IMG/VR virus record: IMGVR_UViG_3300035156_000067
Location: 1 to 52,287 of that record
DNA length: 52,287 nt
Direction: 5' to 3' (one strand)
Source: a virus
Taxonomy: Duplodnaviria > Caudoviricetes
In this document: positions 28,141 to 31,019 of the stretch, piece after piece
How positions within the stretch are numbered: the first letter of the stretch is position 1
Layout of the letters: each line of letters starts with the position of its first letter
Notes under the pieces: generated by a model
The model's database searches: none
What the model saw: the letters and a program-made list of their open reading frames with translations, nothing else
Told to the model about the DNA's origin: nothing
Program-made: the position numbers and the translations under genes

Positions 28141-28311
28141 TCAGAAAAGCTCCATCTGTTGAGAGTTGGCGCGATCAGCCTCAAGGGCTCGGCGCTCTGC
28201 GTTGGCGGCCCAGGTATCGAGGACCGAGGCGAAGGCACGATCGCAGCGCATGTCCGACTGCCGGCGCACATCGGCCTCAGTGCGGAGAACAGCGGCGGTG
28301 TGGCGGCTCAT
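28141..28311 (-). CDS. 56-aa protein ending QMELF (not in the ORF track)
   Basis: ATGA-coupled to the MTase; resembles 43283-43465. Confidence 0.65.
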   Translation of the reverse strand: MSRHTAAVLRTEADVRRQSDMRCDRAFASVLDTWAANAERRALEADRANSQQMELF

Positions 28312-29321
28312 GCGGCGAGCCTTTCGGCTGGGGCCGCGTCCATGTAGGCACCGATCAGGTTCGTGAACGCCTCGACGTCGATCGCGTCACCGAACCCTGA
28401 CAGGAGGCCCATATTTTTGGGATCCGCATCAGCGAGCGGGCTAAGTCCGGGTTCAACCGGGCGCCAGAGTCCATCACGGCCGAGGAGCCAGTCAGGGCCG
28501 CCGCCATATTCAGGGTCTGGTTCGGCCCGAATGGATCGCCACCCTGCCCCCGATGACCATCCGTCACAGTCGGAGTAGGCCAGACGGACAGAAGGGCCTG
28601 ATCGCCCAGATAGAGCGGCACCGTGCTCTGGTTGGCGTTGCGCTTCCGGAAGTCCGCGCACTTCGCCATAGTCTCGTCCGAGCGCGGGCGATCCGTCACG
28701 GCTGGGGTCGCCCAACCGGATGCCCGTGCCGCCATATCCAAGGTCACCTGAGCTTTCGACCCGTCCGGTTTTCGGCCAGTGACCGTCGTGCCATGGGGCA
28801 CGGTCTGACCACCACTCGGCGTTGTCGGCGTCGGCCACGAAGCCAAAGCGCTGGCGTCGGTGCGCGCCTCCGAAGCCCGCAGCCGGTATATCAGGCGTCC
28901 CGATGGCGTAACGCTCGCCCTCCAGGTCACCTGAAACAAGATCGAGCCACTCGATCGCGTTCGCAGATTGCTCACCAAAGATGCAGACAGGCCGGCGCTG
29001 GCGGATGAGCCGAAACCATTCCGGCCATAGGTGGCGCGGGTCGTCAAATCCGAGGCCGAGCCCGGCTTCCGAGAAGGGGCCGCAGGGGCAAGAGCCTGTC
29101 CAAACAGGTCGGTCATCTGGCCATCCGGCACGACGCAGGCAGAGGCTCCAGAGACCGATCCCGGCGAAGAAATGATGCTGGTCGAAACCGGAGAGGTCGT
29201 CGGGTTGGACTTCCTCGATCGAGCGCTCGTCAACGATGCCATGAGCGATCTCGCCCTCCTCTATGAGATTGCGAAGCCACGCGGCCTTCTTGCGGTCGAA
29301 CTCGTTGTAATAGGCGGCCAC
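28308..29321 (-). CDS. DNA (cytosine-5) methyltransferase, catalytic polypeptide
   Basis: FFAGIG (I), GSCPCGPFS (IV), GEQ (VI), HRRQR (VIII) and GFGDAI (X) motifs. Confidence 0.88.
   Translation of the reverse strand: MAAYYNEFDRKKAAWLRNLIEEGEIAHGIVDERSIEEVQPDDLSGFDQHHFFAGIGLWSLCLRRAGWPDDRPVWTGSCPCGPFSEAGLGLGFDDPRHLWPEWFRLIRQRRPVCIFGEQSANAIEWLDLVSGDLEGERYAIGTPDIPAAGFGGAHRRQRFGFVADADNAEWWSDRAPWHDGHWPKTGRVESSGDLGYGGTGIRLGDPSRDGSPALGRDYGEVRGLPEAQRQPEHGAALSGRSGPSVRLAYSDCDGWSSGAGWRSIRAEPDPEYGGGPDWLLGRDGLWRPVEPGLSPLADADPKNMGLLSGFGDAIDVEAFTNLIGAYMDAAPAERLAA
28355..29116 (-). CDS. Nested alternative-frame MTase subunit (WxTP repeats plus motif IX-like segment)
   Basis: Open frame of up to 295 codons wholly inside the MTase gene; three W[PA]TP modules; LNPDLARSLMRIP..W. 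Start is uncertain (ATG 29116 assumed). Confidence 0.7.
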   Translation of the reverse strand: MTDLFGQALAPAAPSRKPGSASDLTTRATYGRNGFGSSASAGLSASLVSNLRTRSSGSILFQVTWRASVTPSGRLIYRLRASEARTDASALASWPTPTTPSGGQTVPHGTTVTGRKPDGSKAQVTLDMAARASGWATPAVTDRPRSDETMAKCADFRKRNANQSTVPLYLGDQALLSVWPTPTVTDGHRGQGGDPFGPNQTLNMAAALTGSSAVMDSGARLNPDLARSLMRIPKIWASCQGSVTRSTSRRSRT

Positions 29322-29355
29322 GGTCAGCCCTCCCCTTGCGTAACGGAGGGGGTCT

Positions 29356-29535
29356 TCATCCTTCTGCTCCGGGATTTTGATGGTCTATTTCGCGTTGCGA
29401 AATCCCCACCGAGAGCGTGTCGGCGTTATCGCTTACTGGACGCATCACCTCGGGAAGCCGGTCTAGGCCGACGAGATGGATGCCGATGGCCACGGCCTGA
29501 AGCTCAGCGGCAAGGCGGGCGTTGGAGACGGTCAT
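29356..29535 (-). CDS. 59-aa hypothetical protein (not in the ORF track)
   Basis: ATGA-coupled to the upstream MTase. Confidence 0.5.
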   Translation of the reverse strand: MTVSNARLAAELQAVAIGIHLVGLDRLPEVMRPVSDNADTLSVGISQREIDHQNPGAEG

Positions 29536-30422
29536 GCGGCCACGCTGACGTTGGCGAACATGCCCTGCTCATCGCTGATGCGACGGCGAGCGATCTCGGC
29601 ATATTCGGGGTTCAGCTCGATCAGGACGGCACTGCGTCCGAGACGATCAGCGACAAGTCCGGTCGTGCCAGCGCCGCCAAATGGGTCAAGTATCGTGTCG
29701 CCCTCGCTACTCGAGCAGACGATGCAGCGCCTTGCTATTTCGGGCGTCATTGGCGCGGGATGCTCAGTCGCGCCCGATGGCGAGACCCTCCAAACACTTG
29801 AGCTAAACCAGTCCTCGCCCGGATTGCGGACGCGGCTTGGGCCATTAGGGGTCAGCAGAAAAATGTAAGAATGTGAGACGGACGGGCGGTCCTGCCGAGG
29901 CGGTTCGGTGGCCGTGCCTTTATCCCAGATGATCGTCTTGCGGAGATACCACCCATCGGCCCGGAGGCGGTCGGCGACCTGAAACGGAGTCAGCGAGAGG
30001 TCGCGAACCTTGTACCCCTTCGGCGGCGACCGCCATCCCGTGCGCTGTTGCAGGCTGGTCAGTTTATGGCGCTTGGCGGCCCTGCTCCCGCCGCCGCCGT
30101 TTCCGCCGGCGGCATAGGTATCGCCCAGCTCGATCCACAGCGATCCGTCTTGCGCAAGCGTCCGCCGTACCTCTCGCATGACTTCAACCAGAGAGTCGGC
30201 GAAGTCTGCCGGACACCCCTCCGTGCCAAGCTGTCCGTCCGCTTCGTAGTCACGTTGCCGCCAGAACGGTGGGCTGGTTACACAGGCCGTCACGCTTCCC
30301 GTGGCGACGTCAGCGAGCCGGTCCCGACAGTTGCCCGTGAGGAGTGACAGTGACGTCTGCTCGGTAGGTACTCGACGGTCTTCCGGCGAGTGAAACCCAA
30401 CCTTTCCATCAGGATATGTCAT
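29532..30422 (-). CDS. DNA amino-methyltransferase (N4-C/N6-A, beta class)
   Basis: TSPPF catalytic motif precedes HPA and LDPFGGAGTT SAM-binding motif. Confidence 0.9.
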   Translation of the reverse strand: MTYPDGKVGFHSPEDRRVPTEQTSLSLLTGNCRDRLADVATGSVTACVTSPPFWRQRDYEADGQLGTEGCPADFADSLVEVMREVRRTLAQDGSLWIELGDTYAAGGNGGGGSRAAKRHKLTSLQQRTGWRSPPKGYKVRDLSLTPFQVADRLRADGWYLRKTIIWDKGTATEPPRQDRPSVSHSYIFLLTPNGPSRVRNPGEDWFSSSVWRVSPSGATEHPAPMTPEIARRCIVCSSSEGDTILDPFGGAGTTGLVADRLGRSAVLIELNPEYAEIARRRISDEQGMFANVSVAA

Positions 30423-30787
30423 AGCGTGGGCTCCGAAGCTTTGGCGGCAGCTCGGAGAGCCTGAACGACTTCAGATTGGGTGCGCTTGGGGGCGTCGTTG
30501 AAGCCCATAGGGGAGCAGCCGTGCACGGCTATGAACGCGGCTTGCAGGTTAGCGCGTAGATCACCATGCTCCACATATCTGCGGCCCAGAACCTTCTCAA
30601 AGGCCCCGTCTGCGCACCAGCAGGCAGCCTTCGGTTCGTCGCCGAAGTCCACGATACGTCCCGCCGAGTCGCGGGCCCACGCATGCTGTATCCAAGCACC
30701 CGGCTTATCCAGCAGATCAGCAGCAGCGTTCAGAACACCCGCCACACCCTCGCCAGACCCTGAAGCCTCTAGGCTGGAGTTATCCAT
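30419..30787 (-). CDS. Hypothetical phage protein
   Basis: AADLL...W.Q...CWCA.GA...FND...RT..EV..ALR pattern; GGAG RBS. Confidence 0.7.
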   Translation of the reverse strand: MDNSSLEASGSGEGVAGVLNAAADLLDKPGAWIQHAWARDSAGRIVDFGDEPKAACWCADGAFEKVLGRRYVEHGDLRANLQAAFIAVHGCSPMGFNDAPKRTQSEVVQALRAAAKASEPTL

Positions 30788-31019
30788 TAGTTTTGCTCCG
30801 GGGCTGCTTCTTGGCTGCAGGGCTCGGACGGGCATGCACCCGGTCGACGACGAACTCCTGACCGCTCAACGGCGCGGTGTGTCCGCCCCGGAACAGGGCG
30901 GCAGCGACCAAGTCTCGGTTGGCGACGAGCTTTGACCAGACCTCCTCAACCTCGGCGGACGTCGGGAACGTCTCGCGACTGTGGATGCCGATGATCGTGA
31001 CGAGTTTGTAGTCGGCCAT
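30780..31019 (-). CDS. Hypothetical protein flanked by 16-bp direct repeats
   Basis: CCATTAGTTTTGCTCC at 30784 and 31016. Confidence 0.6.
   Translation of the reverse strand: MADYKLVTIIGIHSRETFPTSAEVEEVWSKLVANRDLVAAALFRGGHTAPLSGQEFVVDRVHARPSPAAKKQPRSKTNG

Follow-up and report, generated by a model that had tools for sequence, protein, structure and literature searches.

Introduction

The closest described precedent for a DNA methyltransferase encoded by two overlapping reading frames is M.EcoHK31I. According to the accessible part of the published account, its beta polypeptide is encoded wholly in another frame inside the alpha gene, and the alpha polypeptide comprises motifs I–VIII and X together with the recognition domain while beta contributes motif IX (PMC2836561). 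Both chains are required for methylation activity, the N-terminal part of beta is reported there to be partly dispensable, and internal Met codons can initiate its translation (PMC2836561). In Bacillus phages, multispecific C5 methyltransferases are described, in the portion of the source available, as single chains with tandem recognition domains, each domain exerting one specificity (PMC8936443). This work deals with a gene on the minus strand (28308–29321) of the viral DNA IMGVR_UViG_3300035156_000067 (Duplodnaviria; Caudoviricetes), which has a length of 52,287 nucleotides and is, as a whole, referred to as the window. The gene contains two nested open reading frames, named frame A and frame B. 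We judge it probable, at roughly 0.78, that it encodes a heterodimeric C5 DNA methyltransferase with an alpha subunit made from frame A and a beta subunit made from frame B, as suggested by sequence comparison and structure prediction. An initial annotation, made by reading the window, had proposed a C5 methyltransferase gene with a nested second subunit and had named M.EcoHK31I as its precedent. This precedent agrees with the account summarized above, and conservation, per-frame selection and predicted co-folding argue for the core proposal. No description of the arrangement was found in the literature searched, with subscription journals, REBASE and supplements outside the search, and a prior mention is possible.

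Two Nested Frames Are Conserved as a Pair

Frame A extends from a GTG start codon at position 29321 to a stop codon at 28308–28310 and encodes 337 amino acids. Frame B (28355–29242) starts with an ATG at 29242, encodes 295 amino acids, is read from the same strand as frame A in the +1 register, and is nested entirely within frame A, spanning 88% of the gene. The coordinates of both frames and the length of frame B are those that the initial annotation had given, to which the list of open reading frames adds that both lie on the minus strand. Reading of the sequence reveals a Shine-Dalgarno (SD)-like element, GGGGAGGG (29328–29335, minus strand), six nucleotides 5′ of the frame A GTG, and an AGGAGG (29255–29260, minus strand) 12 nucleotides 5′ of the frame B ATG. 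The last frame-B stop codon upstream of this ATG is a TAG at 29261–29263 (minus strand). The G+C content of the two-frame gene is 64%.

A tblastn search with frame B against 50,697 phage records yielded 115 records at <60% identity, 51 of which cover at least 80% of the query. For Aeromonas phage AeroV_348 and Salmonella phage SEN5, the frame-B match is one base off the frame of the annotated cytosine methyltransferase gene, and a six-frame reading finds both frames open in these two phages and in Burkholderia phage vB_E354. A frameshifted pseudogene or an assembly error was rejected as the origin of frame B, since both frames are open in the Aeromonas, Salmonella and Burkholderia phages and in all loci examined later. 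Fetching with frame A returned 80 viral, 26 genome and 80 metagenome loci; the analyzed set of 190 frame-A loci consists of 189 fetched loci and the window, and 175 of them have a complete frame A. Some loci represent the same contig in two collections, and the set holds 141 distinct complete coding sequences. The initial annotation had named interruption of the nested frame in homologues as the outcome that would speak against it, and the opposite was found: a frame-B homologue lies at +1 in 190 of the 190 loci, and frame B is open over at least 200 codons in 172 of the 175 complete loci and over at least 250 codons in 154. The median ratio of B to A length in complete loci is 0.90, and the third frame reaches only 32–151 codons in loci of the family. 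All 26 loci from named genomes keep frame B open over at least 200 codons, down to a G+C content of 50%, and these genomes belong to Pseudomonadota, Desulfobacterota, Actinomycetota, Nitrospirota, Bacteroidota, Saccharibacteria, Omnitrophota and others. The ascertainment was also reversed by searching with a frame-B profile: all 80 loci found in this way have frame A in the same orientation, with frame B at +1, frame B is nested in 77 of them, and no free-standing frame B was seen among the 80.

A few relatives depart from the common layout. In one locus (L070:1501-3018), a single mid-gene insertion or deletion puts frame B into the register of frame A and shifts frame A to the third register, as would result from a sequencing error or in a dead copy. 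The kept property is therefore the +1 relation and not the absolute frame. In another locus (L037:1494-2993), frame B runs in-frame into a Dam domain (PF05869, E 3.4e-28, residues 355–471) and its product continues for 472 nucleotides beyond the frame A stop, which reflects either a natural fusion of beta with Dam or the loss of a stop codon in a single metagenomic contig. Frame B of a third locus (L173:686-2053) is fused in-frame to an HNH domain (E 1.5e-5). The relative L064:1501-3150 has a separate HNH endonuclease frame (2474-2983) in the frame-B register, and L068 is also among the HNH-bearing relatives. In these relatives, the HNH sequence is positioned between the frame A hairpin and motif X, as an insert of ~170–200 codons throughout which frame A is open. 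The HNH frame of L064, L068 and L173 looks like a mobile insertion tolerated by both frames.

The Selected Frame Alternates Along the Gene

The openness of frame B was compared with 200 synonymous-codon shuffles of frame A for each of 73 distinct sequences; by these shuffles, only ~3–7 stops would be expected at +1. The open +1 frame of the window is weakly unusual because few +1 stops are possible in a gene of 64% G+C, and significance is therefore drawn from conservation across relatives rather than from the single window. The test is weak per locus, 0 of 200 shuffles reaching the observed length in 23 of the 73 sequences, and the +2 frame is unremarkable throughout (0 of 73). A conservation profile was built from 70 of the 73 distinct viral sequences (L069, L074, and L078 were left out because of truncation or a shift). 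Frame A is conserved well over residues 1–165 and 277–325 and poorly over 166–275. Frame B is conserved poorly over residues 1–25, highly over 80–146 and very highly over 250–290. Codon-position entropies of the 70 sequences agree with this frame-specific conservation.

Substitution classes were counted in 12 pairs out of 42 listed, each sequence being used once per set. The ratios of non-synonymous to synonymous substitution (dN/dS) reported here come from six pairs at 72–81% nucleotide identity, and the six closer pairs show the same direction with small counts. Over frame A residues 27–100 (A27–100), dN/dS is 0.28 in frame A (p 2e-36) and 1.00 in frame B (p 1), and over A101–165 it is 0.58 in frame A (p 1.5e-4) and 0.81 in frame B (p 0.19). 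The order is inverted over A166–276 (28494–28826, minus strand), with 1.09 in frame A (p 0.59) and 0.40 in frame B (p 4.8e-17). Both frames are under purifying selection over A277–305 (28407–28493, minus strand; frame A 0.37, p 8.6e-4; frame B 0.33, p 2e-4), a segment that reads DWL..RDG.WRPVEPG in frame A and contains a motif-IX-like segment in frame B. From A306 to the end, the values are 0.36 for frame A (p 6.6e-8) and 1.01 for frame B (p 1). Moreover, the third position of frame B is the most variable one in A166–276 (0.335 vs 0.183 and 0.165), and the difference rate at the third position of frame A drops from 0.44 to 0.25 in A101–165. The selected frame alternates along the gene, with dual constraint on ~29 codons and possibly on a further ~65. 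The family data show conservation and openness of both frames, with purifying selection acting on each over particular stretches. The calculation of dN/dS per frame, a check named in the initial annotation, finds purifying selection specific to frame B. The claim made there that both frames must stay open holds insofar as both are open family-wide; the dual constraint extends over the limited number of codons given above.

These data bear on the explanation that frame B is not a gene and results as a by-product from G+C content and the constraint on frame A, from a frameshifted pseudogene, or from an assembly error. The G+C content of 64%, the expected number of +1 stops and the value obtained for the window (p ~0.045) agree with it. 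Yet frame B has a codon periodicity of its own and a dN/dS of 0.40 where frame A is neutral, and the pattern W.[TS]P is found 375 times in frame B vs 3 and 3 times in frame A and the third frame of the 141 distinct loci. Frame B is open in genomes of 50–53% G+C, the arrangement is present throughout both locus sets while the third frame is short, and with frame A identities of 35–68% the loci are not near-identical copies. We give this explanation next to no credence.

A further explanation assumes one polypeptide made by two programmed frameshifts, leading from the frame A core by +1 into frame B and back to frame A for motif X. It would also produce the order A, B, A of selected frames along the gene, and the spliced order of motifs I–VIII, recognition domain, IX and X would be that of a standard monomeric enzyme. 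Such a polypeptide needs no open frame A mid-gene. Yet a stop test of the passenger stretches, done with frame-B-preserving shuffles in 134 loci (7 of the 141 were excluded because they were truncated or had a stop of frame B in that part), finds 0 frame A stops in the neutral middle vs 2.46 expected per locus, and 12% of shuffles are stop-free. It needs no frame-B ATG either, yet an ATG is present before A100 in 140 of 141 loci vs 75% expected, and it needs no open frame B in the ~100 codons upstream of the switch, yet 129 of 134 loci are stop-free over A45–100. The purifying selection on A277–305 in both frames also speaks against it. To our knowledge, two recoding events conserved across phyla have no precedent, and we consider two frameshifts very unlikely. 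Programmed ribosomal frameshifting as such is likewise disfavored by the own ATG of frame B and by a frame A that is open mid-gene in 134 of 134 loci vs 12% expected.

The start of frame B has left further traces in the family. The frame-B ATGs cluster at alignment positions 27, 29, 31, 37, and 41, and an SD-like 4-mer lies upstream of the ATG in 96 of 140 loci. Where an Asp codon creates the ATG, GAT is used in 200 of 366 cases vs 496 of 1420 elsewhere (p 1e-11), and Arg33-Ser34 is written as GGAG in 46 of 121 loci vs 16% expected (p 2e-9). The five exceptional loci with a frame-B stop over A45–100 begin frame B further downstream.

Frame A Encodes a Methyltransferase Core

Frame A matches phrog_363 over residues 1–330 (E 7.3e-58) and PF00145 over residues 74–170 only (E 7.1e-8; 32.7 bits vs a cut-off of 22; profile positions 65–167 of 324), and the match to TIGR00675 is under the cut-off (18.7 vs 100.65). 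The assignment of motif names to segments of frame A is our own reading, and residue conservation refers to 101 sequences of the family; all coordinates are on the minus strand. The motif I-like FFAGIG comprises residues 51–56 (29154–29171) with H50, F52, A53, and G54 invariant, and it aligns to the N-terminal segment of M.HhaI. Motif IV, CPCGPFS, is located at residues 78–84 (29070–29090), where S77, P79, C80, and S84 are invariant and Cys80 is at the position of the catalytic Cys. Motif VI, GEQ, comprises residues 116–118 (28968–28976; G116 and E117 invariant), motif VIII, RRQRF, residues 155–159 (28845–28859; R156 and R158 invariant), and motif X, GDAI, residues 311–314 (28380–28391; G311 invariant). 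The five motifs that the initial annotation had seen in this frame are borne out by these invariant residues and, within residues 74–170, by the PF00145 match. It had also stated that recognition domain and motif IX are lacking from the main frame, and this is what the data indicate: residues 166–276 are unconserved with no in-chain recognition domain or motif IX, evolve at a dN/dS of 1.09, and are predicted to be disordered.

Two deviations pointed out in the initial annotation, GD in motif X and MRIP in frame B, are indeed divergent, as traits of a whole subfamily. At position 312 of frame A, at least 90% of the family have N and the subfamily of the window has D. PCG (for PCQ), GDAI and LMRIP are common to relatives at 55–86% identity and are therefore subfamily traits, not signs of decay. 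Three near-invariant positions differ together in the subfamily: frame A has PCG for PCQ and GD for GN, and frame B has LMR for LMG. Such joint replacement may reflect coupling at the active-site interface between alpha and beta.

Ahead of motif I, residues 1–37 of frame A (29211–29321, minus strand) form an N-terminal unit with the segments YYNEFD... and GIVDERSI, which Pfam leaves unaligned. The alignment to M.HhaI jumps from residue 32 to residue 71 of that chain while the frame A query moves only from 66 to 70, and the AlphaFold2 model has a beta-alpha-beta unit at residues 3–31. Both features fit motifs II–III having been shifted ahead of motif I, as the initial annotation had suspected from the sequence, and they are consistent with this order rather than decisive; a search of residues 1–44 against PDB sequences gave no match at E ≤ 10.

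Frame B Carries WxTP Modules and a Motif-IX-Like End

The second frame begins with an N-terminal passenger region (residues 1–76; 29015–29242) that overlaps motifs I–IV of frame A, followed by a helix (80–96) and a beta-hairpin (103–125) within residues 77–125 (28868–29014), which make the main predicted contact with frame A. The first WxTP module, WPTP at residues 136–139 (28826–28837), overlaps VADAD of frame A, and W136, T138 and P139 are present in at least 90% of the 101 family sequences. The second module, WATP, is located at residues 177–180 (28703–28714), and the third, WPTP, at residues 221–224 (28571–28582), with W221 in at least 90% of the sequences. Near the C-terminus, residues 263–278 (28409–28456; like all these features on the minus strand) form the motif-IX-like segment LNPDLARSLMRIPKIW, in which L263 and L271 are invariant and N264, P265, P275, and W278 are found in at least 90%; its family pattern is LNP...WLMG.P..W. 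Three WxTP modules and an end resembling motif IX were what the initial annotation had described for this frame. A possibly multispecific anti-restriction enzyme with swappable modules, as put forward there, is a conjecture; the number of modules does differ among relatives, which contain 0–6 W.[TS]P modules, with a mode of 3 and a median spacing of 38 residues. Frame B matches phrog_1008 (E 1e-17), which has the label "DNA methyltransferase," and also phrog_31772. No Pfam or NCBIfam match was found for it, and in the ESM Atlas only unnamed viral clusters were matched.

Predicted Structures Suggest a Complex of Both Products

The frame A product was modeled with AlphaFold2 on a 101-row alignment. 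The model has a mean predicted local distance difference test score (pLDDT) of 76, with values >90 over residues 1–170 and <50 over 185–259, and a hairpin with helices at 277–336. In Foldseek searches, 125 chains are matched at E ≤ 0.001, including M.HhaI (E 1.5e-8, probability 1.00, template modeling score 0.34, 193 columns) and M.HaeIII (E 4e-8), the alignments to these two enzymes comprising 170–193 columns. Frame B modeled alone has a mean pLDDT of 64. It is predicted to be disordered over residues 22–73 (pLDDT <50 at 22–51 and 55–73), and its helix 80–96 and hairpin 103–125 reach 86–92. The predicted disorder is complementary, lying at 185–259 in frame A and at 22–73 in frame B.

Co-folding of both products, a check named in the initial annotation, gave for frame A with frame B residues 60–295 an interaction prediction score from aligned errors (ipSAE) of 0.88 (runs 0.87, 0.89, and 0.88), and the best of three controls scored 0.00. 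The mark applied was passed by 58 of 80 solved complexes and by 2 of 110 mismatched pairs, a calibration that is only rough because our own alignments were used. The runs share at least 62% of contacts, and the pLDDT of the partner is 58–59. In the predicted complex, frame B residues 77–123 contact frame A residues 139–157 and 321–326, and residues 132–142 and 171–177, around the first two WxTP modules, contact 162–176 of frame A. Residues 260–284 of frame B contact 310–316 (motif X) and 11–24 of frame A, including A19. The co-fold supports binding of alpha and beta at the level of a model.

This prediction is also the point at which a separate role of beta has to be weighed. Both frames might be translated without beta being a methyltransferase subunit: beta would then have another task, for example in DNA-binding regulation or together with the neighboring amino-methyltransferase, and alpha would act by itself or with a different partner. 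No homology of frame B to any methyltransferase was detected, the L037 relative fuses frame B to a Dam domain, and an N4/N6 methyltransferase adjoins the two-frame gene, all of which would suit such a role. Against it, alpha has no conserved or ordered segment at the place of the recognition domain and motif IX, the 80 loci found with frame B all carry frame A at the fixed +1 relation, and the predicted complex (0.88 vs 0.00 in the controls) packs beta on motifs VIII and X. We regard this explanation as unlikely.

Proposed Mechanism and Its Weighing

In the heterodimer that we favor, translation of a single messenger RNA in two frames would yield two polypeptides, which would assemble into one C5 DNA methyltransferase. 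Alpha, starting from the GTG at 29321, would provide the S-adenosylmethionine-binding and catalytic core with motifs I, IV, VI, and VIII, followed by a putative disordered linker of ~110 residues, the sequence of which would be dictated by frame B, and then by a beta-hairpin and the motif X helices. Beta would start internally at the ATG at 29242 behind the AGGAGG. Its first ~75 residues are predicted to be disordered, with a sequence that would be dictated by frame A, and they would be followed by the helix-hairpin docking on alpha and by the WxTP modules, which are variable in number with three here. The motif-IX-like segment at the end of beta would pack against motif X. In this way, beta would supply the small target-recognition domain missing from alpha. 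Translation of both frames, binding of alpha to beta and a sequence specificity set by beta are what we infer from these data, and the role of the enzyme would most likely be self-protective methylation of the phage DNA.

Several findings weigh against this assignment. The support for the two-subunit reading is indirect, coming from evolutionary comparison and modeling, and the co-fold may lean on the likeness to monomeric methyltransferases. Frame B has no PF00145 match, and 0 of 101 family members match it at E ≤ 1; its 101-sequence profile has no match among PDB sequences at E ≤ 10. In Foldseek against the PDB, nothing was found for frame B at E ≤ 0.001 (best E 0.96), and a wide fold search with VIA reached a best Z of 3.1 at a root mean square deviation of 5.8 over 55 aligned residues. 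The label "motif IX" rests on the pattern and the predicted contacts because no canonical C5 methyltransferase relationship was detected. For the window taken alone, 9 of 200 shuffles reach the open length of frame B, and over A45–100 the depletion of frame-B stops is modest (129 of 134 loci stop-free vs 74% expected). The frame-B test over A101–165 is not significant, and the constraint on the best-folded part of beta therefore rests on the fall at the third position and on the fold. The p-values overstate independence because the loci are related and partly duplicated (141 distinct coding sequences). Finally, the L037 and L173 fusions are single metagenomic contigs.

Extending the heterodimer to the whole family, we think it rather likely, with less assurance than for the window itself, that phage and prophage C5 methyltransferases of a very large family all require two subunits, which a single frame-interleaved gene encodes, with beta as a modular specificity subunit. 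With a comparable leaning, the genes would overlap by ~90%, each frame forcing a disordered passenger on the other. Which target sequence, or which several, is methylated would plausibly depend on the WxTP modules, which are gained and lost among relatives. On this reading, beta subunits would make up tens of thousands of the "hypothetical proteins" in databases, an annotated "DNA cytosine methyltransferase" of the family would in every case be only half an enzyme, and few same-strand overlapping gene pairs known from prokaryotic viruses would be as long or as widespread. If specificity resides in a separate modular subunit, the target could change by gain or loss of modules with the catalytic core untouched. 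For experimental work, cloning the "methyltransferase gene" of this family means cloning both proteins unknowingly, and codon optimization of frame A would destroy frame B. The family is also a clean and deeply sampled natural case of overlapping genes, with alternating ownership, ~29 dual-constrained codons and passengers predicted to be disordered.

Frame B in Databases and Annotation

The frame-B profile matches 32,954 representative proteins at E ≤ 0.001, of which 9,363 are matched at E ≤ 1e-30. Eight of the matches scanned lack a Pfam family, the source names of the matches are "hypothetical protein," and 0 of 120 among the matches listed have a Pfam domain. A single-chain form with a frame-B-like region was not seen, there being no PF00145 in the 120 near-length matches listed, and longer proteins matching frame B number only six, none with a Pfam family. 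In the best 150 of the 32,954 representatives, the match starts at protein residue 1–41; fused forms may exist among lower-ranked matches. The frame-B protein of the window is on record letter for letter (P0271, 100% identical) and the best frame-A match is 86% identical, so that the gene caller of the contig evidently kept B and dropped A. In Burkholderia phage vB_E354, an annotated "putative metabolic enzyme" sits in the frame-B register. Frame A is the one named in RefSeq plasmid and E. coli records, and only frame A is annotated in AeroV_348 and SEN5. Annotation pipelines pick one frame at random because the frames are nested on the same strand. Gene callers retain one of two such frames, and the beta of this family is mostly left as "hypothetical protein" with no Pfam family.

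Neighboring Genes

Directly 5′ of the two-frame gene lies an N4/N6-type DNA methyltransferase gene of 296 codons (29532–30422, minus strand; phrog_67, E 2.3e-47), giving the phage at least two adjacent methyltransferase genes. The start of the N4/N6-type gene overlaps by four nucleotides a 138-residue frame (30419–30835, minus strand; phrog_762). No nuclease was recognized adjoining the two methyltransferase genes of the window. Opposite these genes, antisense open frames of 256 codons (29031–29801, plus strand) and 151 codons (28553–29008, plus strand) are present, which are most likely by-products of the 64% G+C.

Comparison With Known Systems

The catalytic-domain fold of frame A resembles that of M.HhaI and M.HaeIII, with which it shares the invariant PC, the E of motif VI and the R.R of motif VIII. 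Unlike these enzymes, its chain has no recognition domain and no motif IX, and the N-terminal order looks rearranged compared with M.HhaI, ~3 residues standing in place of M.HhaI residues 33–70. Similar to M.EcoHK31I, the second frame is nested in the alpha gene; the present case is known from sequence, and the likeness is judged by the description of that enzyme in the accessible part of its source. By the same description, the recognition domain of M.EcoHK31I is on alpha and its beta is small, whereas here the recognition-like WxTP modules are on beta. The beta encoded here has 295 residues and occupies 88% of the alpha gene, and alpha has a predicted disordered linker at the place of the recognition domain. 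The arrangement is also family-wide, with hundreds of loci in many phyla, is phage-borne and has no partner nuclease in view, which sets it apart from M.EcoHK31I as far as that account goes.

Like the multispecific Bacillus phage enzymes, as outlined in the part of the report at hand, the gene described here places tandem modules between the core and motif IX, and their number varies among relatives. Unlike in those enzymes, the modules are on a separate overlapping product, and the likeness is one of module layout. M.BatI, which was also considered, appears from the same portion of that report to be an unrelated small Bacillus prophage enzyme (PMC8936443). The long same-strand overlapping genes of phiX174 and other small viruses and phages likewise encode two proteins per stretch with disordered passenger parts, going by the section of the source available (PMC8227390). 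In contrast to the overprinted genes treated there, this gene appears to encode two components of a single enzyme, with its frames taking turns in owning the sequence.

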